Assembly: GCF_964194155.1 (NCBI RefSeq)
Contig: NC_135893.1
Span: 60,140,001-60,204,000 of the forward strand
Source: Cetorhinus maximus
Taxonomy: Eukaryota
DNA: 64,000 bases
Direction of reading: 5' to 3'
Numbering within the stretch: the first letter of the stretch is position 1; each line of letters opens with the position of its first letter. Below the pieces are notes generated by a model, which ran no database searches, was not told the origin of the DNA, and saw only the letters and a program-made list of their open reading frames with translations. Of the stretch, positions 3,101-62,206 are shown one piece after another. A program made the translations under genes and the position numbers.

Positions 3101-6100
3101 GCATGATACAAGATAATGGCATTTTTAACAAATTGTAGCAATCAATCTCTATCAATTAGTCTACAACCAACCCAGATGTGAAACAAGGAAAACCGCAGTA
3201 ATGGAGAGGTTTGGGAACCGTAGGTTCAAAGCCTCCTGTACCTCCCAAGACATACTACACTCACCACACATCGTGTCTCAAATTATACATATACCGTATC
3301 CCAAAATATTATTCCGTATTTATTCTGCTTTTTATTCGTATTTATGCATGACACAGCAAAGCCACATCCCTAGTAAGCCTAATAACCCTGATTTCCATTG
3401 CCCTTCCTGCATCCCTATTTGAATCTCCTTATAGTTTCTCGTTCTGCCATCCTTGCTGATTGTTTGTTCCAGATCTTTACTACTTTTTTATTGAAAAAAA
3501 TTACCTTGATTTCCTATTTTTGTTTTGCCACGCTTCATTTGAATTTGTTGCTAAATTTTGTATGCAGCTGAAAATATGCTTGGATCTAAATACTCCAAAC
3601 TCACAATAAACAAGCTGAAATGGTGCAATGGGCATGAGAAGGGCCACCTCATCGTGCTGGTTATCAGGAGGAACTATGTTTGTGTTCCATTTTCATAACA
3701 GTGCCATTGCTTTTCTCAGCCTTTGTTCAGTGGCTAGTGTATTCTTTTGTGTCATTAGGTCATGGGCTCAAGACCCTGTCAGAAACTTGAGCACATAATC
3801 TAGGCTGACACTCCATTGCAGTACTGACGAAATGGTACACTGTTGGGGGTATCGCCTTTTGGACAAGAAGTTAAATCAACGTCTTGCCCTCTTGGGTGAA
3901 TATGAAAGATTGCAAGGCATTAATCAAAAAAGAACAGGGGCGTTTTCCTTGGTGGCCTGGTCAATACTTGGCCTCCATTCAACATTACTAAAACAAAATG
4001 GACCATCTAGTCATTATCGCATTGTTGTTTGCAAGAGCTTGATGTGTGCAAATTGTCTGCCAGATTTCCCACATGACAATAGTGCCTATACTTCACAATA
4101 ATCTAATTAGTTGTAAAGTGCATCAGGATGCTCCATGGTCACAAAAGGCACTAAATAAATAAATGCCAGTCCTTTCTTCCTTTTTCACATCTCCATTTTA
4201 TTTCTGTTACTAACAGGTGATTGGGCCAGTGATTCCTCAATGGCTGCAGTTAGTAATGCAGCTTGCTTTACATAGGCTCATCCACCAGAGGTAAGTGTGG
4301 ACATTCTGAAATCACCTGTGCATATCTATGCTCAATCAGTTTGTACAGACAGAGCGAGCAACCGTCTATTCGCCACAATACTGCATTCAACTGAGGTTGG
4401 GAAAAGTCCTGGTTGGCTGAATCAGTTGGGTATCAAACCACTTAAGAATTTTAGGTGCTTCTATCAGATCCCACATTTACCTTGTCTAATGAATAGTTTT
4501 CCAATGAATAGTGTCAGCTGTGGCTCAGTTCATGGAACTCTCGCCTCTAAATCGCAAGATTCCAAATTCAAGTCCCACTCCAGGGCTTGAGCAGAAAAAT
4601 CAAGGCTGACACTCCAGTGCAGTACTGAGGGAGTGCTGCACTGTTGAGGGTGACTTTGTTGAGCCGTTAAACAAAGGCCCCATATGCTTGCTTGGTGGAT
4701 ATAAGAGATCCCATGGCACTATTTTGAAGAAGAGCAGGGGAGTTATTCCTTGTGTCTTGGCCAACATTTATCCCTTAATCAACATCACAACAACAGATTA
4801 TCCGGTCATTATTAACTTGATGTTTGTGGGAAATTGGCTGCTACTTTTCCTACTTAACAAGTACTTCAGAAGTACTTCATTGGCTGTAAAGCGCTTTGAG
4901 ATGTCAGGTGGTCATAAAAAGGTGCTACACAAATGCCAATCATTATTTTTCAAGCCTCATTATATTTTTCCATTCAAGTTTTGTCCTATTTAATCTACAA
5001 TGCATCTTTTTTATGTTTCCAAAATCCTTTGTATCCCAAAGTGCACGGTATTCCCAAATGAATAATCAGTGCCCAAGAGATTCTTTGTCACCCACACGGT
5101 TTTATATTCAAGAGCCTACTTATAAAAGTCAGGATATAATTTTGGTCTCCTGGCATTGCACTTGGGATCCTGTATATCTGCATCCTTCAATCCCATTGAG
5201 CATTTCGTCATTTATAGTCATTTGCTAGTACAGAACTTTAGTATTAAGAGACTTTTTTTTTGTCGAAGCTTTTCGTGTTTCACTCATCAGGACAATTCGC
5301 AAGAAAATAGAGTCAATGTCAGTAGAAACAACATATTTATACTCCATGAGAGTGTTGATTGGTTGGCAAGTGGACTCTGGTAGAGGCGTTGCTATGGAGT
5401 GTATGATTAACAGTATAAATATGTTGTTTCCCCTGACATTGGTATTTTCTTGTGAATTGTCCTGATGAGTACAAGACAAAAAACTTTGACAAAAAGTCTT
5501 TTTTCAGCAATATTCATCATTTATCTTTCTATTCTCTGTTCCAAAATGTGCCATATTACATTTATCTACATTTGCCACATATCTACCCACTTCCCTAAAG
5601 TTCCTGCATTCTACTTCAGTTTGCCACAATTCCTAATTTCGTATTGTTGACAAATATTGTTTATTTCCTCTTGGTTCCAAGTTCAAATCATTTCTGTACG
5701 TGGAAAATGTTAAGGCCTGACATAAATATGTGTTCCTGGAATTTCATTCCAAAGTCTGTATTAGTTTGTGCAAATGGGGGCCAGGTAGCTACGACAATGA
5801 TATGGAATTGTCCACAGAGAAGACAGAAGTTGTTGAACCAATGGATTTGCACAATGTAAAAGTGAAATTACCCTGAGCAAAGACTTAACTGGTAAATAGA
5901 CAGGATAATTCCTTATGAATACAAGAATGTATTAACTTTGAAGTACTGAGGGAATATTAGGCACAATAAAGCAAATCAAGAATCTGATATTTCACTTTTT
6001 TCTTTTAACAGAAGCTCCTTTTTCCTGGTCCTGCATCTTGTGTTAGAAGTAGCTGTGTATGGAGAGTATTCATGGGAAGTGTTTCCTTACAGCTTGGAGC

Positions 6101-9100
6101 TGGGATTCAGACGAAGTATTCTGCTGCTGCCTTACATCCTGGTGCTTGGGAAGATGTACTTTTTCTATCAATGCTGCACCAAAGACCCTGGTAAGAAACA
6201 GACTATTAAAGCAATTAGGCAGACAGATGTCTCACCCTAATCTGCTGTCACCCTTTCTCAGCTGACCGAGGCCATTCCTCAATGTTACCTGCAGCTCTTA
6301 ACCGGCTGCTGTTGGTAGCACTCTTGCCACTGAGACAAAGGTTTGGATTCAAATCCCACTCCAGAAACTTGAGCACATATCTAGACCAGCATTCCAGTGC
6401 GGTTCTGAATGAGAGCTGCACTGTCGGATTTGCCCTCTTTGGATGAGACCTTAAACCAAAGCCCTATCTGTCTTCTCTGATGGACGTACAATATTCCATG
6501 GCATTATTTTGGAGAATAGCAGGGGAGTTCTCTCCTGTTGTCCTGACCAATATTTATTCTTCAAACATCATTACTGAAGATTTTCTGGTCATTAACTCAT
6601 TGCTGTTTATGAGACCTTGTTGTGCACAATTGGCTGCCATATCTCCAAAATACAATGGTAACTCCACTTCAAAAGAGTACTTAATTGGCTGTAAAGCGCT
6701 TTGGATCATCCTGAGGTTATGAAACGTGTTTTAGAAATTAAGTTTCTTCTTTAAGACAACTCTGCCTGCCTTTTGCCTCTGGACAAATTAGTTTTTCTTT
6801 TATTCTTTCATGGAATTTGGGTATCACTGGCAAGGCCAACATTTGTTGCCCATCCCTCATTGCCCTTGAACTGTTTCAGAGGGCAGTTAAGAGTCAACTG
6901 TATTACCATGGGTCTGGAGTCACAGGTAGGCCAGACCAAGGAAGGATGGCAGATTTCCTTCCCTAAAGGACATCAGTAGGCCAATGTTTTTTTTTGGTAA
7001 CAATCTATGATAGTTTTATGGTCATTACTGAGATTAGCTTTCAATTCCAGATTTTTATTAATTGAATTAAAATTTCACCAGCTGCCATGGTGGGATTTGA
7101 ACACATGCCCCTAAAGCATTAGGATGGGACTCTGGATTACTAGTCCAGTAATAATATCACTACACCACCATCTCTCCTAGCATAGTCTTTGATTACAATG
7201 TACAAATTAAACATAATTGAATGGTGCTGCATCATCTCTGCTGTTTGTTTAAAATTTTCTAAACTGGAGGCAGTGCATTGAGCCAGATCTCTTCTAGGAA
7301 CTTGCTGCAGAAATGCTGCCTGTATTTCCAATCTCATCCTGGTTGCCAGATGGAACAAGCAGGTAAAAGCCTAGTGCTTCCCCCAAGAAAGGAGAGGAAC
7401 GTAGAACATTGATCAATTGTTTACTTGGAGCACGCAGCACCCTTAACAGACTGGACAGAAGTCATGGAGTTACAGGAATTATTACAAATCAGATCAAAGA
7501 ATTTTAGACACTAAAACAAAAGTGGATGCTGGAAATTTGAAATTAAAAACCGAAAATGCTGGAAACACTCAGCAGGTCAGGTAGCATCAATGGAGAGAGA
7601 AACAGAGTTAACATTTCAGGTTTACCTTTCATGAGAACTTAGTTTCAGACACTTTCAATTTGTGGCTGTGATTGCTTCAACTGATTCACAGGATTTGCAA
7701 CAGTTAAATTATTTGAGCTTAATGTGTATTTCTTGTTTGTTTCTCAAAGGTATGATTTCTCCTTCAAACCATAAGCAGCTGCTGAAAGTGTATATGTATG
7801 ACGGAATTTTGTATCAACAATCCCACATCTGCCCTACGTGTGAACTTGCAAAGCCAGCACGGTCAAAGCACTGCCGTAAGAAACTTACAACAGTTCTGAT
7901 AAACAGACAATGATTTTCAAATTCTGATGGACTTGCTGTGTATTTGCAGAAATGTTTTGTGAATTCTCCTCTCCAGCCAGGGAAAGCACATGGCCAGTCA
8001 GGTCTTTTGTGTGAGACTGCAGATGATTTGGGTTCTGCACTCTTATTCTTTACAAACAGTGTCTACCAACTTCTGATAATTGTAGAAAATTCACAAGAAT
8101 GAGTGAATTTGCAGGAATTACTCTTTTTGAGCCATATATAAAACATGCAACTATTTTTTAAAAACTCAATTGCAGATTAAAAATGGTAAAACCCAGTCGA
8201 CAGCACAATCAGTGGGGTGGATGGGGTTGGAGAAATAGTAGGCTTTTGCATATTGTACTATAGAAAACTAAAGGGACCAAGAGCAACTCAGCTATTAATG
8301 GCCACTAACATAAATTAACAAGTCCCTGGTGCTCCACAGGGTTGAGCAGAGCATATGGGCATTAATGGTGCACTGGTTCTGCCAGCTGAGATACGAAAAC
8401 CAAAACATGGTTTCTTTCCTAAAGGTCCCGACTCGTCTTGGCCACAGAGCCACATGTGGCATCCGGTACTTCACCTGAGCAGCCACACAAGCACATGTTC
8501 TAATACTATTTCCTAAAATCCAAAGGCGCCTCAAAGATTTTGGCAGATACAGTCCTTTCTAGTGGATCAATTGTCCTCTGGGAATTCTCTCATTTTAATC
8601 AGGATTTATAGAATAGCAGCGAGAAAGGACTTCTGTCTCTCCTACTTGGGCTGGATTTGGTGCTGGGCATCGGGGATGAAAGGACAGTGCCTAACCCCTG
8701 GCACCACAGTCATCTGCTAATGATTTCCTCTTCTCCTCAGGTGTGTGTAACCGGTGCGTCCATCGATTTGACCATCATTGTGTCTGGGTGAATAACTGCA
8801 TAGGGGCATTAAACATACGCTACTTCCTGTTGTACCTGGTGACCCTGTCAGGGATGGCAGCTGCTGTGGGAACCGTGACTGTGAGATTCCTTATCCAGGT
8901 GGCACTGATGTCTAACCTACATCAGGCAATGTATGTAAATACTGATGGTGAACACGTGCCTGTTGGCATCCTGTATATAGTCCAGGTAGAGTTATTTATG
9001 ATTCTTTAAGTCTGTGGCCAATCTATATTGTTTGTTCAGGATTTTGTAAAAAATTAAGTTGCTGTTGGATAATCTTCCAGAATCCTTGTACTATATAAAG

Positions 9101-37300: not shown

Positions 37301-40300
37301 GGTTTATTCACTGGCTCAGGCTCCTCCTGGTATGGTGTCGAAACAAGTTTCATTTGCTGGAACTTTACTTTCTCTGTACAAGGAGTGATGGCCTTCATAT
37401 GGCGAGTGAGGGCTCCAGATTCTCGGAAACTCATTCCACACATTCGGCATTTGTAAGGCCGCTCATCTGAGGAGACACCGTGACAGTTGTTAAACCTCCA
37501 GTCTAAACTCTGACAAACCTCCCAACACAGGTCAAGTATGCTGGACATTTACAGCCCCTCCTGAGAGATCAGTGATTTTATACCTATACTGAGCTGCTGA
37601 ACAATGAAACATCTTTAAGGACTAATCAACAGATAGATTGATCAAATAAAACTCATTTTTACAAAGGGGACACCACCTCGGAATTCACTGGAAATCTGAA
37701 TGAGATTATTCCAGATTTATGACATGTGTGGAGCACAAACACTAGCACAAACCAGATGGACCAATTGGCCTGTTTCTGTGCTATAATTTCTATGTAAAGT
37801 AATAAAGTTTTCCTTAAAATAGACATAGGGTTAGAATTACACTGAGGAATTTGCATTTGTCAACAGGGTGTGTGCAAAAGTACACAGGTGAAAAGCAACA
37901 GAGAGTGGGGAAAGGGAAGCACAAAGTAACAATTGGGGTAAATCTGTCTGGAAGGAGATGCTGAGCCTCACACTGTCAGGGGGCTTGATTGATATCAAAG
38001 AAAGGCAGTCAGCAGCATTGGGAGCTCTTCAATTTGTGAAAGATGTGAAATGTCGGATGCCCCAGAGCCCACTGGGGGGAAATGAGGGGATTGTAGGATC
38101 ACTCAGATCACAGATGGCCTCAACAAGGAACAGAGTGGACACAGGGAAAAGTGCCAAAGGCAGCCAGCGAACCAGCGGCTTTAAAAAGGCCCAATATCTG
38201 TATGGAGAAAGAAAGACAGAGGCTAAGAAAGCACTCACTGCTCACTGAAATGTAAACTGTGTTACAACCAGACCTGGTCACCTTGCCTGGTTTTCTCACC
38301 TGTGTGCCGTCGGTTGTGTCGAACTAAAGATCCCTTTGTTCTAAATGCCATCCCACAAATCTTGCATTTGAAAGCCTTCTTGTCACTATGGGTAACCATG
38401 TGAGCCTTTAGGATGACAGCCTGCAAGTACAGCATCAGACCCTCTGAAAACAGGCGCAGGACTGGCAGATTCAAGTTACTGTCATACACACAACAAACAA
38501 ACAAACACACACACATCTTTCTAGAGGCATTTCTTGTAATCATGTCAAATTATCAGGATATCTTGAACTTCTGAGCTGATATTTCTGACACTGTAGCAAT
38601 TAACTCCATTTAGCACGTCAATGAGTTACTAATCAGTTCTTTATTAATGGACAGTATTGTGCCTCCAAATAGGGAAGTGGGGTGGGGATGTGGTTCCACA
38701 ACTGTAACTTTTGCACACCCCACTTTTCAAGGCATCCAAGCTGCTCAGGGCTCGCAAGTACCTGGGACACCCCTGGATAGGGACACCCCTAGCTACAAAA
38801 GGTCAACAGCTCTTACAAGTGTTGTACATGGAGGATGTATATATTTTTTGAATTACAACATTTTGCTTGTTTATTTTTTAAAATTCTTCCATCTATTTCT
38901 CCTCAACCACCCCCAACCTTGCACAGCATACTATTCCTAAGGCAAGACACAATCTGCCATTATCACTCAGCCAACAGTTAAATGATGCATTAGTGCTGCG
39001 CAGAACAACTCTCTTACACCAGTCCCAAAGGTTTACTGAACCCAAATGGAGACTGAATTAGGAAAGAAAAAACTGGGTTAAAACCCTATGTGTCCACTCA
39101 CCTAACACTAGCAGAGGGGCAGTTCCATTTCATTCACTCCTCACAATTTACTCATGCTAGCAGTTTTTCAACCATACAGTCTGTAATTACAATCCGTCCC
39201 CAAAGTCCAGGTGATTTAACTGACCGTTTTGAAAGTCTTTTCGCAGACCTGACACACGAATCGCCCTTCATCAGTTAGAATCATCTCAAATCTCTTCTTT
39301 TCAGTCCCACTCTCTTCCTCCGTGCTTTTCTGACAACTGTGGCCATCAGCTCCATCATTGGTGGGATGTTCATTCTGCTGTAGCTGAGGGTATTCACACA
39401 ATTGTTCCTCTGAGATCTGGCATGTCTTGTTGCTCCCATCAACTGGAAAAAAGATTATAAATTAGGAGATGAAGCTCAGCACTGCACTGATCCAAGGCAA
39501 GGCACAGCTACCCATCCTAAAAGAGGACCCAGACAACAGTAACTCTTAGGTTACTGCAGCGTTTAAAGCTACAGCATCATCCAAATTTCTCAAGGTTTTA
39601 GCTCCTCATAAAACCCTAAATTTGAAAAACAGAAAATTGCATGGGGCAGAGAATTTGATCTGGAACCTGCGTTCAAATTCCACCTGAGCTAATGGGCTCT
39701 GTCTGCTTGTTCTAAGTGAAATGAGCTTGGCCAGTCTCAACCCAGTTCTCGTGCATCGCGAGCCACATTACAAGGCTGCACTTAATTAGCCAAATCATTC
39801 ACAAAGGCACAGGATAGCTACAGTCCAGAGCATTCTTCTGTTGGGATTGAGAAACATTAAAGGTACACCGTAATGCGAGTAAAACTCTGCACCTGAAACA
39901 TGTCATACCTGACCTGGGAGTGCTTAGTGTCAGCACTGGATGCCTGAAATGGCAATTGTTCTAAATCCCAGAACTGAAACCTCTCACCTGTGATAAACTT
40001 CACAAAAATAAAGTAAATCTTTCCCGGAATTCCTCACCTGAGTGCGATTTACTGTTTGCTTCGGGCTGTGATAGGGAAGCCACAACCAACTGCGTGAGAG
40101 TGATTGCCGAGTCCAAGGACACTGACTCCTGGAAGCAGAGAGGGAAAGAGATTTAAGAGGCATATGGGTCTCCAAGCTGACAGAACCTGCCTCAGTTCCA
40201 CAAATATTCCACCTTCCACCAGAAAGGCAATTCAAACAAAAGGAGTTTCTGCTGTCCCATCAAATTTAAACAGGAGCTCTCTCTACCAGCTAAACCCCTT

Positions 40301-53067: not shown

Positions 53068-54977
53068 TGGGTGAAATCTGACTACCCTAGTTTCAAAACG
53101 AACAGCAGGTCTATTTGTGGATCATGAGCACAACCTCCTGAATAGTAGACCTGTCGGTTGCTCTTTCCCAGAGCCAATCAATTAAGAGCCCACCTCTGGG
53201 TTGCTGTCCATTAAGGGGGAGGGGAAGAAATGTCTGAAACATTAATGAAGGATATCTATCTAAAAGGATCACATACTCAGTGCGATTCGCTTACTAAGAG
53301 ACGGGGGAAAATGGATGGAAGGTGTGGGATGGCTGCCACTATTCTCCCCACCCCCCCTCCCCCCCCCCACCCCGAGTTCACGGATATGATCCTAGAGGTA
53401 ATACTGAAAGCAGTCAGGGCACAGAAAGAAGTCCTCTTTCCTGGGGGTGGCAGGAGGAGACCAAACAACCTCATCAAAAAGCTTGACTTGAGGTTGCAAA
53501 GGAAGTGAGCAGCTGGAGTGTAGTGTGTCCTAAATATTTCGGTGAGCTCCTGAGGTCCAGCAAGGTGAATGCCCTGCAACTCTCAGGCGGTAGCTGTAGC
53601 CATCACTCACTTCCTTAGCAATCTTCTGCACAATTATCATCTCAATCACACACTCTGCTGACACAATCATTTCTCGACCTCAACAGTCCCTGGCCTGGAG
53701 CATTGCACTCATCCTATCAAAGACTCCTACGGAAGTTAGCTCTGCGCCCCTCACCCCATGGGAAGAGTCCATTTCTACCATGAGTGCCATGATGTCTCAG
53801 GCATTTGTGCTCATGATCACCCTTCCCTCATTGATAAACAAGGCAACCTCACGGAGAATCATACGTGGCAAGTCACCACAATGAGGACCCATGACAATGA
53901 CCTGCACACTATGGCAGCAACCTTGCAAAGCTTTCAGCCATCATGGCTCTTGTTTAGCAGGGAACTACCGGCGGTGGGCCCTGAGAGGAAAGAGGAAGGC
54001 AGGGATAGTGACAGTGAGGGATGTTCTAAAGATCCCTCCAGATCACGACCCTTCCCCCTCTGACAGTCTGCCCTGCATAGATGCAGATGGTGCAGTGACA
54101 GGCTCCAAAACTCAGAGGATGTTTGCCATGGGCATCTTGTGTCAGAGCAGGGGAATGAGCAGCCTGCCCCCAGGCTTAGTCTGGCTGCATAAATTGTCTC
54201 AGCTGCACAAAGGGAGTCATTTGGGTGCTTATTACACTGTTACTGCCACATGGATTATATGTATTTCAATTAAGGCAATGATAATAAGTGACCTGATAAG
54301 TGTCATGGGATCATTTGTGTTCCACGCCACATTGAGCCTGAGTAGGTACATGATGGTGAATTGGAATGAGGATTGATGTGGATCCAAGGCTTAAATAGAA
54401 CATATTGGGTTGATGCGTGTTTGTACCAAGCAGGTTAGTTACAGGGGGAGCGGGGGGGGGGGGAGGGGGCGGTGGTGCGGGGGGAAGCTAGCTTCCACAG
54501 GAGTCGTGACAGGACAAGTGCAATACCCCAAGCACAGCACTCAGCTGAAGCATGTCTGGATGAGGGCATTGTGAACTTCGTGGGTCTTTAACCACAGGCA
54601 CCAACAGCATTTCAGGCTGTTACTGTGGCTACTCCCTCTCAACCTCCTCCCAAGGACACCGGCATTCTCCAACATCCTCTGGTGTCAGTATCAGTGTTTT
54701 CTGAAGTGCTAAATTATGCAGGGTGCAGCACTACTATCCAGAATACCCTTGCTAGGCCATATTGAATGGTGGCCCCTGATTGGTCAAGGCATTGGAACCC
54801 CATTTTGAGCAAGCCAATGGTTTGCTCTTTTGTGGCCCTGGTAGTAAGATGGCTCTGGTTGTACCTCTGCTGTGCCTCTGTGCTGGGGTTCCTCACTGGG
54901 GCCATCAGCCAGCTCCTGAGCAGGTACCGCTTGTTCCCCAGGAACCATCCACTGAGGCCATTCAGTAGAAAGAAGAC
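53068..54977. mobile_element. Decayed PIF/Harbinger DNA transposon
   Basis: + strand Myb/SANT-like remnant PEFTDMILEVILKAVRAQKEVLFPGGGRRRP; convergent - strand HARBI1-type transposase remnant PVRNPSTEAQQRYNQSHLTTRATKEQTIGLLKMGFQCLD. Truncated by the PLE. Confidence 0.8.
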
Positions 54978-59297: not shown

Positions 59298-62206
59298 ATG
59301 GAGAGAAGCAGAAGGATTGCAAATACCCTGAAGGGTGTTTTCCCATTTGTAAGTATAAGGTATCGGTGACATTCTAGGATCCACTGTTACCTTTAATTGG
59401 TTGTGGGGGGTGGGGGGGGGGGGTTGGGTGCAGGGGGGATTTTCTTCACATTCAGCATGCAGTATATGACCAGCAACACCTTGGGTTGGCTGAGCTGGAG
59501 AGAAATCGCTTAGTGCTAGTGACTAGTCTTTTTGACAGCTGCCAGTTTTATTATTTCAGAACCCTGGACTTTAATGTCAAGCAGAATTGGGCTGAATGCT
59601 CAGTCAGACAGGACTGCAGCAGGTTTCTAAGAAGCTGATGCTCCACAATGAGCTCAGTCAATGGGCCCTTAGTTACTCTTAGTATTTGATTCTGATTGAG
59701 ACTCGAGTTTGTCTTGTACCAAGGAAGACTTCCTTTCTGAGCAGTTCATCCCACAGAACTAAGATAAACCTCACTTCCTCTTCATTCCTGCAATTTAGAA
59801 AAGAATTCCATCTCATTCAACTAAAAGTGAATGAAAGTTGTGCCTATTCTGCAGACCCAACACTCGAACTTTTTCCTTACACTGTCCCCATTGCAGGTAC
59901 AAGCAGATCGCTTGGGAGCCGAAGCCAGGACTGGGCTGCGCATCTTGTGGGGAGCTTTACTTTTTCTGGTCATGGCAGCAGTTATCGGGGTCTCAGCCAT
60001 GGGAATACTGAATCTGAGAGAAAGCAACCGGCAGGTAAGTTAAACTCTCAGCTTTGTCCCCTGCCTGCCCTCCAGGCTCAGGGCAATGGGCAGTTCAGGA
60101 ACGGTTATTGAAAGTGAAAAGTTGTTGGAAACTGAACAGGAATTGGCCAGTTTGTAAATTTGAGACACCATGGTTCAGGGACCTTTACAACAAACTGGGA
60201 ATTTTAGAAACAGTCAGGAACTGAACACGGGGACCAGCCTAGAATCTTTAAAAGTTTACAAGAAGCTGGGTATTTTACAGACTCTGACCTGTTTGCTGTG
60301 TGTTTCCTGGAGTTTCTGGTTCTATCTCTGCCACACGTTTGTGGCTCTGGCTTAACGTTTTACCCAAGTTACTCATCTCCATCAGAAACACTGCATTTCA
60401 TTTCAATTAATGGTTCATTTGGCTAATTTTAAAACACTTTGGACTATTGTGAGATTTTTGATCCATAGAATCATATAGCACAGGTGGTCATACTAAGAGG
60501 ACTTCCAGATAGTGCACTTTGAGTGTGATGGTTCCTGATTGTATGTTTTCTGTAAATTTCAGCTCCTTGGACATATTCTGTGCTGTTTCTAAGTGACTCA
60601 AGTTGCTTCTTTTATTTCCAGAGTTAACTCTGTAGAATGTAATAAAGATGCACAGTTAATGCACTGATTTTCCAGATTTTTGAAACTGATTTCATATTAA
60701 TTGTTTAGTGGTACAGAACTTCAGTATTGCTGAAAAAAGGAGACATGCTGTCTAAGTTTTTCATCTTGCACTCATCAGGACAGTTCACAAGAATAACAAC
60801 AGGAAAGGAAACAACAATTTATACTGCTGATTGGTTAGCAACTGGACTCTGGTAGAGGCGTTGCCATGGAGAATGCAGCAGGGAACAGTTAATGGCCAAA
60901 CTTTTCAAATTCAAACCAGACAGGTGAATCTGACTGGTCAAGGCATTGCCATGGGGAATGAACCAGGAAATGGCAGTCCCCCAAGCTTTTGTTTAGTTGA
61001 AAAAGGCACAATCCGTGGGCATGCTCCTTCTGTCTGTGCGTGAATATATGTGACTTTTAGCATGCGTAAGTGAGCCACACTGTGAGCCAGACTAATAATC
61101 TCAAATTGGTTTTCAATGTCATTCTTAGCAACAGGCAAAGTGCTGATGGTACCCAACCAGCCCATGCTTGCAAAACTCAAAACATAGTGTCCAACATCAG
61201 ATGTGATTCCACAATCGGACAACGCTTGCTAAACATTCCTGATTGTGCTTGAGTCAACCTACTGGTCTTGTGATCTGTCCTGACGCGTGTAAGACAAAAA
61301 GGTTGAATTCAAATTGTCAAAGTTTGAGGGGATTTAAACTCTCATTCCCTGGATTGGTCCAGGCCTCTGAAGTAGTGCTCCAATAAAGAAAGAACTTTCA
61401 TTTATGTGAAGCTTTTATATCTTAAAGCACTTTACAGCCAATAAAGTATGTAATGTAGGAAATTCAACAGTGAATTTGCATACAGCAAGCACTTACAAAT
61501 AGCAATGAGATAAATGGCCAGGTAATCTGTTTTTAGTGATGTTGGCTAAGGGATAAATATTGGCTAGGCCACCAGGAGAATTCCAAGCTTTTCAAAACAC
61601 TGCAGTGGGATCTTTTATGTCTACCCTTGCTTTAAAATCTCAGCTGAAAGTCAGCACCTCCAACAGTGCCACACTCTCTTGGTACTGGAGTGCCAGTCTA
61701 CATTTAACATTAAGATCTCTGCTGTGGGACTTAAATCCACAACATACTGTGTGAGATGTAACCCATTGAACCACCACTGCCACCTTGCTTTCCCAGGTAA
61801 GCTCACCAGCTAGGTTGATCGTCTCACCGTAATCCTGCTCATGCTGTAAACTCATCTCCAAGGGAAGACAAATGCATTTTTCATGTACAAATGCATACAC
61901 ATGTTTTTTCTATCTGTATGCATCTGTATTGTCCAGTCTGCCTTTTTTCTCTAATAAGGTCTGTGTTGCCATGTTTGTTGCAATTCTGTAAAACCAAGAT
62001 TGAGGAGACCACAGCCACAGATTTGAGGTTTTCTCTGGTTTTAATATTTGAGTTTCTACTCTCCCCAGGTTGTTCAGATAACATTTCACGATGTGCAGGG
62101 TGCCATGGTCAGTCAGTCAGTGGTTGTGAACAAAGAGGAGGATCTGGTAACTTACCACATAATGGACAGGAACCACACAACAGTGGTGCTGTTTGACAGT
62201 AAGAAT
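59298..62206 (+). CDS. BRICD5: BRICHOS domain-containing protein 5, partial: join(59298-59348,59897-60034,62069-62206); continues past the window
   Basis: MERSRRIANTLKGVFPF | type-II TM segment ILWGALLFLVMAAVIGVSAMGIL | VVQITF…SQSVVVNKEEDLVTYHIMDRNHTTVVLFDSKN. All donors GTAAGT, phase 0; follows PGP on the same strand. An upstream in-frame ATG at 59223 is an alternative start. Confidence 0.8.
60700..61253 (-). mobile_element. Penelope-like element fragment (family B), internally inverted, with hammerhead at 60748-60783
   Basis: - strand: endonuclease C-terminus remnant NQFEIISLAHSVAHLRMLKVTYIH, 3'UTR, then CUGUC-CUGAUGA-GUGCAAGAU-GAAA-AACU-UA-GACAG. + strand about 61130-61253: DSTIGQRLLNIPDCA remnant. 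Confidence 0.78.

Follow-up and report, generated by a model that had tools for sequence, protein, structure and literature searches.

A truncated fold-back Penelope-like insertion with a fossil hammerhead motif in an intron of Cetorhinus maximus

Insertions made by Penelope-like elements (PLEs) follow a recognisable layout. A typical Penelope structure joins a pLTR to an adjacent inverted pLTR; it is tailed on one side only and carries a target-site duplication (TSD) of 8–10 bp, and its pLTR contains the first codons of the ORF (PMC3846280); the inverted-pLTR layout is likewise given as typical in PMC8557442. A Poseidon protein cleaves AT-rich DNA on both strands and extends both; it initiates reverse transcription at two closely spaced points within the start of the ORF, which accounts for the tail, and its template is uncleaved RNA, the hammerhead cleaving only together with the protein (PMC11167929). 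The minimal hammerheads of PLE pLTRs are reported to have low activity, dimers included (PMC4209133), and dimeric hammerhead cleavage was described by Lünse et al., as related in the review PMC6765202. Retrozymes are built as direct tandem repeats (PMC7229834; bioRxiv 10.64898/2026.07.22.740005). The open literature searched contained no paper on the family described below, no shark PLE hammerhead, no account of two primings and no count of one-tailed copies; Repbase and Dfam or the supplements of papers may list the family.

The window analysed here is a stretch of 64,000 nucleotides from Cetorhinus maximus (assembly GCF_964194155.1, contig NC_135893.1, forward-strand positions 60,140,001 to 60,204,000; coordinates below count from its first base), and it carries a fold-back at 5216–5512. 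The region folds at −118.9 kcal/mol with a z-score of −10.5, matched by 0 of 100 shuffles, and its inverted arms pair over 5257–5309/5443–5495 (53 nt, 87%) and 5314–5343/5412–5441 (30 nt, 93%). An earlier note, made from the letters of this DNA alone, had described a palindromic element with a 12-bp TSD in an intron between coding exons. The placement is borne out by the host intron, which spans 4291–6011 on the plus strand with GT/AG ends between open, spliceable coding exons (4217–4290 and from 6012). A later exon, downstream of the insertion, gives a Pfam DHHC match (E 2.6e-18), and the palmitoyltransferase gene is one that we take to be ZDHHC4; the ESM Atlas returned no gene name for host exon 3. 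Copies of another dispersed repeat at 4566–4644 and 6347–6424 flank the region.

The flanking direct repeat (5204–5215 and 5513–5524, plus strand) is present and agrees at 11 of 12 bases. Its exact core measures 8 bp (5208–5215 and 5517–5524), and 12 bp is the upper limit for the TSD, since the first four right-hand bases can equally be read as element end with one change. The last two bases of the left copy also fit the end of the tail. The element is not the palindrome that had been described, its arms being unequal and only the left one tailed. Arm boundaries were placed with a profile built from 14 natural copies, in coordinates relative to C17 of the hammerhead, and from end to end the unit consists of a TSD, the tailed arm, the filler, the short arm and the second TSD, with the arms head to head. 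The left arm (5216–5399, minus strand, 184 nt, profile match E 3e-47) covers −140 to +56 of the 3' end of a PLE and includes a tail at 5216–5241 that runs 26 nt past the short end, or 28 nt with the TSD overlap, and corresponds to about codons 8–16 of the parent ORF. The right arm (5410–5512, plus strand, 103 nt, E 1.8e-28) covers −77 to the short end at about +30 to +33 and has no tail. The start codon is kept by neither arm. Between the two lies a filler of 10 nt (5400–5409) with a junction pattern unique in the genome; the first 7 bases of the filler are the reverse complement of family sequence next to the right-arm start, and this inverted repeat is likely a small snap-back. At 5340–5350, two adjoining left-arm changes lengthen the pairing with 5393–5402, possibly as a template-directed change inside the hairpin.

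Each arm carries a hammerhead motif. On the minus strand, 5295–5260 reads stem I TTGTC, CTGATGA, stem II GTG-AAA-CAC, GAAA, AGCT, TC and GACAA, which confirms that every conserved hammerhead nucleotide is there; C17 is base 5265 and cleavage is predicted between 5265 and 5264. The motif thus has the core, stems I and II and the palindromic stem III of a minimal type I hammerhead. A strict descriptor, which asks for the hammerhead core, a stem I of 4 bp, a stem II of 2 bp and a palindromic stem III, picks out this site alone in the window; among 200 shuffled windows, 2 contained any site. "Perfectly intact", as the motif had been called, is right for the core and less so for stem II, where the 3 bp private to this copy depart from the family's 2-bp stem with a 5-nt loop by two substitutions (G>C and a loop change). 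Set against the family motif, the plus-arm motif at 5457–5492 shows 4 changes in 36 positions, all G>A or C>T. As had been noticed, it has lost G12 and part of stem III: two of the changes are G12>A and C17>T, both of them CpG decays, and the other two fall in stem III and in loop II. The Rfam search that the earlier note had proposed returned 8 and 13 matches in two runs at E up to 10, with no hammerhead family among them, and its miRNA matches were rejected as hairpin noise below gathering scores. Folded in isolation, the motif has no unusual stability (z 0.34). A loose hammerhead pattern gave 33 matches in the window and was uninformative; one of them, at 39231–39274 on the minus strand, reads more like C2H2 zinc-finger coding sequence than like a ribozyme.

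The minimal type I hammerheads of metazoan PLEs share with this motif the core, the short stem I and a palindrome replacing helix III, and the Schistosoma hammerheads that lie in pairs 100–700 bp apart on opposite strands resemble the two arms found here; stem II, in contrast, has 7–8 bp in Schistosoma and 2 bp with a 5-nt loop in the present family, 3 bp in the window copy (PMC4209133).

The source of the arms was found by following the family upstream of its hammerhead motifs, where the sequence continues unbroken into endonuclease and RT coding sequence. RT-anchored loci were read from 25 fetched out of 41 matches; L040 and 24 further loci have RT motifs, then a GIY-YIG-type domain, then the pLTR. 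The most complete is L077, a near-full-length broken copy in which an inverted tailed arm is followed by a direct hammerhead leading into the ORF, RT, endonuclease and a short-ended pLTR. It aligns over nearly the whole length of intact RT-EN proteins of 839 and 863 residues (tblastn E 6e-171 and 2e-157), and a public protein collection yielded 68 homologs at E<=1e-20, the majority with RVT_1. In the decayed copy L075, RVT_1 is matched at E 5.3e-5, under the cut-off, while RT motifs are present in L040, L075 and L077. The endonuclease motif VVY-x-F-x-C-x-C-xxx-YVG occurs in L063 and L077. A direct Pfam scan of the L063 ORF gave no match, and homolog P0045, 1 of 2 scanned, has Pfam GIY-YIG above the cut-off; the assignment as GIY-YIG thus rests on homologs. 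Alignment establishes both arms as colinear 3'-end (pLTR) pieces of an autonomous Penelope-like element, ending within the first codons of its ORF.

In the 5' pLTR of L077, the hammerhead continues into an N-terminus that can be aligned with homologs P0010 and P0014. The parent hammerhead sits just before the start codon, and the ORF opens at the ATG directly after stem I; an ATG within the catalytic core was rejected as the start codon because the homolog N-termini align in frame starting after stem I. Copies of the family end at two preferred sites about 26 nt apart, +30 to +37 and +56 from C17, near codons 7 and 16. All ORFs among the 25 RT loci and 8 longer stretches of this genome are broken, so that the parent is known from decayed copies. 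By inspection of L063, L077, P0010 and P0014, the RT-EN linker lacks a CX2-5CxxC finger, which points to membership in the Penelope/Poseidon clade as that clade is defined in PMC8557442.

Colinearity with RT, a hammerhead-bearing pLTR overlapping the ORF start, and an inverted truncated copy with a one-sided tail and a TSD are all found here, as in EN+ PLEs, and the hairpin is read, with a probability of roughly 0.9, as two head-to-head, 5'-truncated 3'-end fragments of an EN+ Penelope-like retrotransposon, flanked by a TSD and likely left by one old dead-end insertion. The suggestion that the ribozyme is a minimal hammerhead of the Penelope type is borne out, and insertion by PLE machinery, also suggested, is likely. 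Canonical EN+ PLE insertions (PMC3846280, PMC8557442) have the same head-to-head inverted pLTRs, tail at one end, TSD of 8–12 bp, pLTR including the first ORF codons and heavy 5' truncation. They differ in that the window copy consists of pLTR only, in the length of the tail (26–28 nt here against 30–40 nt) and in the very high copy number of the present family. Poseidon PAc of Anolis carolinensis likewise has its hammerhead beside the ORF start with two tail-defining end points there, an AT-rich target and a template uncleaved by the ribozyme; its cut site, however, lies 26 nt after the ATG, whereas that of the window family is predicted a few bases before it, and its reverse transcription starts about 111–118 nt into the ORF, against end points about 21 and 49 nt in for the window family (PMC11167929). 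Taken singly, the locus is a real feature, but of a kind already described: it is the fold-back insertion of a truncated Penelope element whose ribozyme is a fossil, and as an old intronic relic it matters little in itself.

The family is another matter in number. A first-look similarity search of the same genome gave 6,861 candidates, of which 40 were scored, and an exact 34-base hammerhead pattern with its two CpGs left free had at least 4,128 matches genome-wide, exact ones only (control 0); the 36-base form with both CpGs fixed had 70. In such genomes, thousands of these fold-backs will turn up in searches for hammerheads or miRNA-like hairpins. Among 57 loci picked by the hammerhead motif only, three duplicates having been dropped, 31 had an inverted partner within 1.5 kb (12/20, 5/10 and 14/27 in the three samples), with spans of 160–1,576 bp and differing break points. 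In 6 of 7 long loci an inverted arm stands directly upstream of an ORF-bearing copy; in the remaining locus, inverted pieces lie some 3 kb upstream. Short and long copies share the inversion, which is therefore a common insertion mode of the element at any length. What looked like hot spots of truncation, near −145 and −191, were dismissed, as they mark points where older subfamilies diverge from the reference. An A stands at position 17 in 14 of the first 100 of the 4,128 motif matches, and the A-run separating stem I from the start codon differs between subfamilies; from this variation, several subfamilies of the element were active.

How the inversion arises was approached through the tails. 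Among 49 head-to-head pairs from loci L001–L123, the window included, 41 were one-tailed, 8 untailed and none two-tailed, the arm ends having been called by profile alignment on decayed copies, where widely spaced partners may be separate insertions. Independence would predict 4.0 and 4.6 two-tailed pairs in two sets (chi-square p 1.5e-4 and 4e-4), and single arms were tailed in 12 of 26 cases. In the 30 adjacent one-tailed pairs, the tailed arm reached further 5' in 14 and the short-ended arm in 13, with 3 ties; in those 13 pairs neither arm is a DNA copy of the other, since each holds sequence that the other lacks. The lack of two-tailed pairs (0/49) and the mutually non-copy pairs (13/30) together favour two separately primed cDNAs. 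In such an insertion, the element protein would have opened the two strands of an AT-rich target at sites staggered by 8–12 nt, and reverse transcription would have begun at the far site on one DNA end, giving the tailed arm, and at the near site on the other, giving the short arm; both cDNAs would then have stopped early and been joined via a short filler. As each arm continues across the predicted cut site, the template RNA had probably not cleaved itself, and the ribozyme would belong to the life cycle of the parent element.

This two-cDNA step, in which both target ends are primed on RNA, one per start site, and then joined end to end, is slightly favoured over its absence for the window copy. 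The same identity would be preserved if one far-primed cDNA had stopped at −140, folded back near −77 and been copied to the short end. Such self-priming is the less probable course, though it fits the window copy equally, in which the tailed arm exceeds the short arm in length and holds all of its sequence; the filler with its 7-nt inverted repeat agrees with self-priming, PMC3846280 interprets junction palindromes in that way in its Discussion, and the matching geometry is seen in 14 of the 30 adjacent one-tailed pairs. Against it stand the 13 of 30 pairs in which the tailed arm is shorter and neither arm can copy the other, a type to which long copies such as L077 belong. For the family as a whole, the chances are even that its thousands of fold-backs record two-end priming at far and near RNA start sites with head-to-head joining of the cDNAs. 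If two-end priming is true, it would tie the two-site, two-strand activity of the Anolis enzyme in vitro to the unexplained inverted structures and argue against pure self-priming. The family is in any case a large natural data set on the formation of tandem and inverted structures, a step of the Penelope cycle which PMC8557442 calls undefined. What deserves specialist attention is solely the one-tail rule at the population level, and this rule is directly testable in the existing in vitro system.

Far less probable is the proposal that the fold-back unit is a non-autonomous mini-element, retrozyme-like or MITE-like, which is transcribed in one piece and copied whole by PLE machinery. The unit is short, flanked by a TSD and equipped with two hammerheads, a similarity search returned many further fold-backs of about 290–310 bp, and PLE-derived non-autonomous elements exist (PMC8557442; bioRxiv 10.64898/2026.07.22.740005). 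Those matches, however, were chosen by a query that is itself a 291-bp palindrome, which explains their size: 18 of 30 loci picked in this way were fold-backs, mostly near 300 bp, with other junctions, against the wide range of spans in the motif-sampled set. A gapped pattern across the junction of the window copy matched once in the genome, at the window itself (control 1), and the junction of the nearest look-alike, L016, also occurred once (control junction 0), the patterns being exact, so that a diverged sister of the window junction could be missed. A fold-back subfamily around L003, L013 and L016 was dropped on the single L016 junction. The earlier note had named unique junctions as the result that would refute a coding-free mini-retroelement family, and with one match to the window junction, other junctions in the other fold-backs examined and arms drawn from an RT/GIY-YIG element, that idea falls and is already largely refuted. 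The two ribozymes, moreover, lie on opposite strands facing apart, which leaves no double cut of one transcript into the unit.

The specific models behind this proposal fare no better. Animal non-LTR retrozymes (PMC7229834, bioRxiv 10.64898/2026.07.22.740005) resemble the window element in their size of about 300 bp, low GC, type I hammerhead and relation to pLTRs, but their units follow one another in direct tandem array, the ribozymes sharing one strand, whereas the element in the window stands alone, has inverted arms and runs colinear with an autonomous element; a non-LTR retrozyme requires direct tandem units that each bear a hammerhead on the same strand, and the arms here are inverted, without a tandem unit. 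A MITE-like family of fixed internal structure was rejected on the junction found once and the differing remainder of the fold-backs, and the symmetric TIRs of a MITE-like DNA-transposon derivative on the tail at one end and on arms that are the pLTR of a retroelement.

The minus-strand ribozyme of this truncated Penelope-like insertion is likely a lucky survivor rather than a kept function. Decay was compared over 58 arms not chosen by motif, in which bases were retained at 546 of 579 non-CpG core positions and 324 of 348 loop/N7 positions (p 0.48). A comparison of the core with ORF-start columns (p 0.0009) was set aside as unfair, because those columns include ragged copy ends, and the loop comparison is the fair one. 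Every core base was kept in 23 of the 58 arms, and core plus both CpGs in 0 of 58; in a hand count of the first 100 of the 4,128 motif matches, the C11.1-G12 CpG was kept in 22 and both CpGs in 8. All-intact arms are uncommon, and this rarity leaves slight scope for selection; but in a family numbering thousands a copy of this sort still falls within the tail of the distribution, and the window copy was found because it looked intact. At the variable position of stem II, G occurs 1,345 times in the genome, another base 117 times and C 16 times, while among the first 100 of the 117 non-G variants, counted by hand, A has 74, T 14 and C 12. The cost of forcing the hammerhead fold is 0.7 kcal/mol for the motif by itself, rises to 4.4 within the left arm and reaches 34.1 for the full element, in which the predicted pair probabilities of the hammerhead stems drop to 0. 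The folding models thus predict a ribozyme buried in the hairpin, and hence inactive, in any transcript that crosses the element, since, whichever strand is transcribed, an antisense copy comes earlier in the transcript and pairs with it. The sole run on record as RNA with any of the window contained 0.04 of its sequence words.

Contigs of a second, related species cover the flank and left arm (4886–5305) and the right arm and flank (5428–6199). The insertion predates the split from that species, because the contigs span arm and flank. Over 4962–5305, the orthologous contig, seen in four runs from at most three samples and two studies, differs from the window by 14 substitutions, 11 of them listed; the remaining 3, which repeats hide, fall by elimination in about 5257–5305, against 6 in the preceding 284 bases. 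Selection for an intronic ribozyme that would function antisense to the host gene, the least probable reading of all, would draw on a core and both CpGs intact although the arms differ by 7–13%, on a complete motif antisense to the host pre-mRNA beside a dead sense motif and on an insertion common to a second species, yet against it stand a stem II change no commoner than the other transversion, the frequency of complete cores among unselected arms, those 3 substitutions and the predicted burial. The left arm has lost 5 bases at 5245 in C. maximus only, the contigs of the second species keeping the family letters.

Other traces of repeats occur in the window, many stretches of which match repeats present in the fetched loci. 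A second, older fold-back of the same superfamily lies at 60697–61313, with a tailed minus arm covering −427 to +55, an inverted endonuclease-coding piece at 61126–61249 and the remnant of a decayed plus-strand hammerhead at 61265–61313; no clear TSD was found for it. A weak match of 57 bp to the upstream pLTR region of the element is seen at 54772–54828 (E 0.005).
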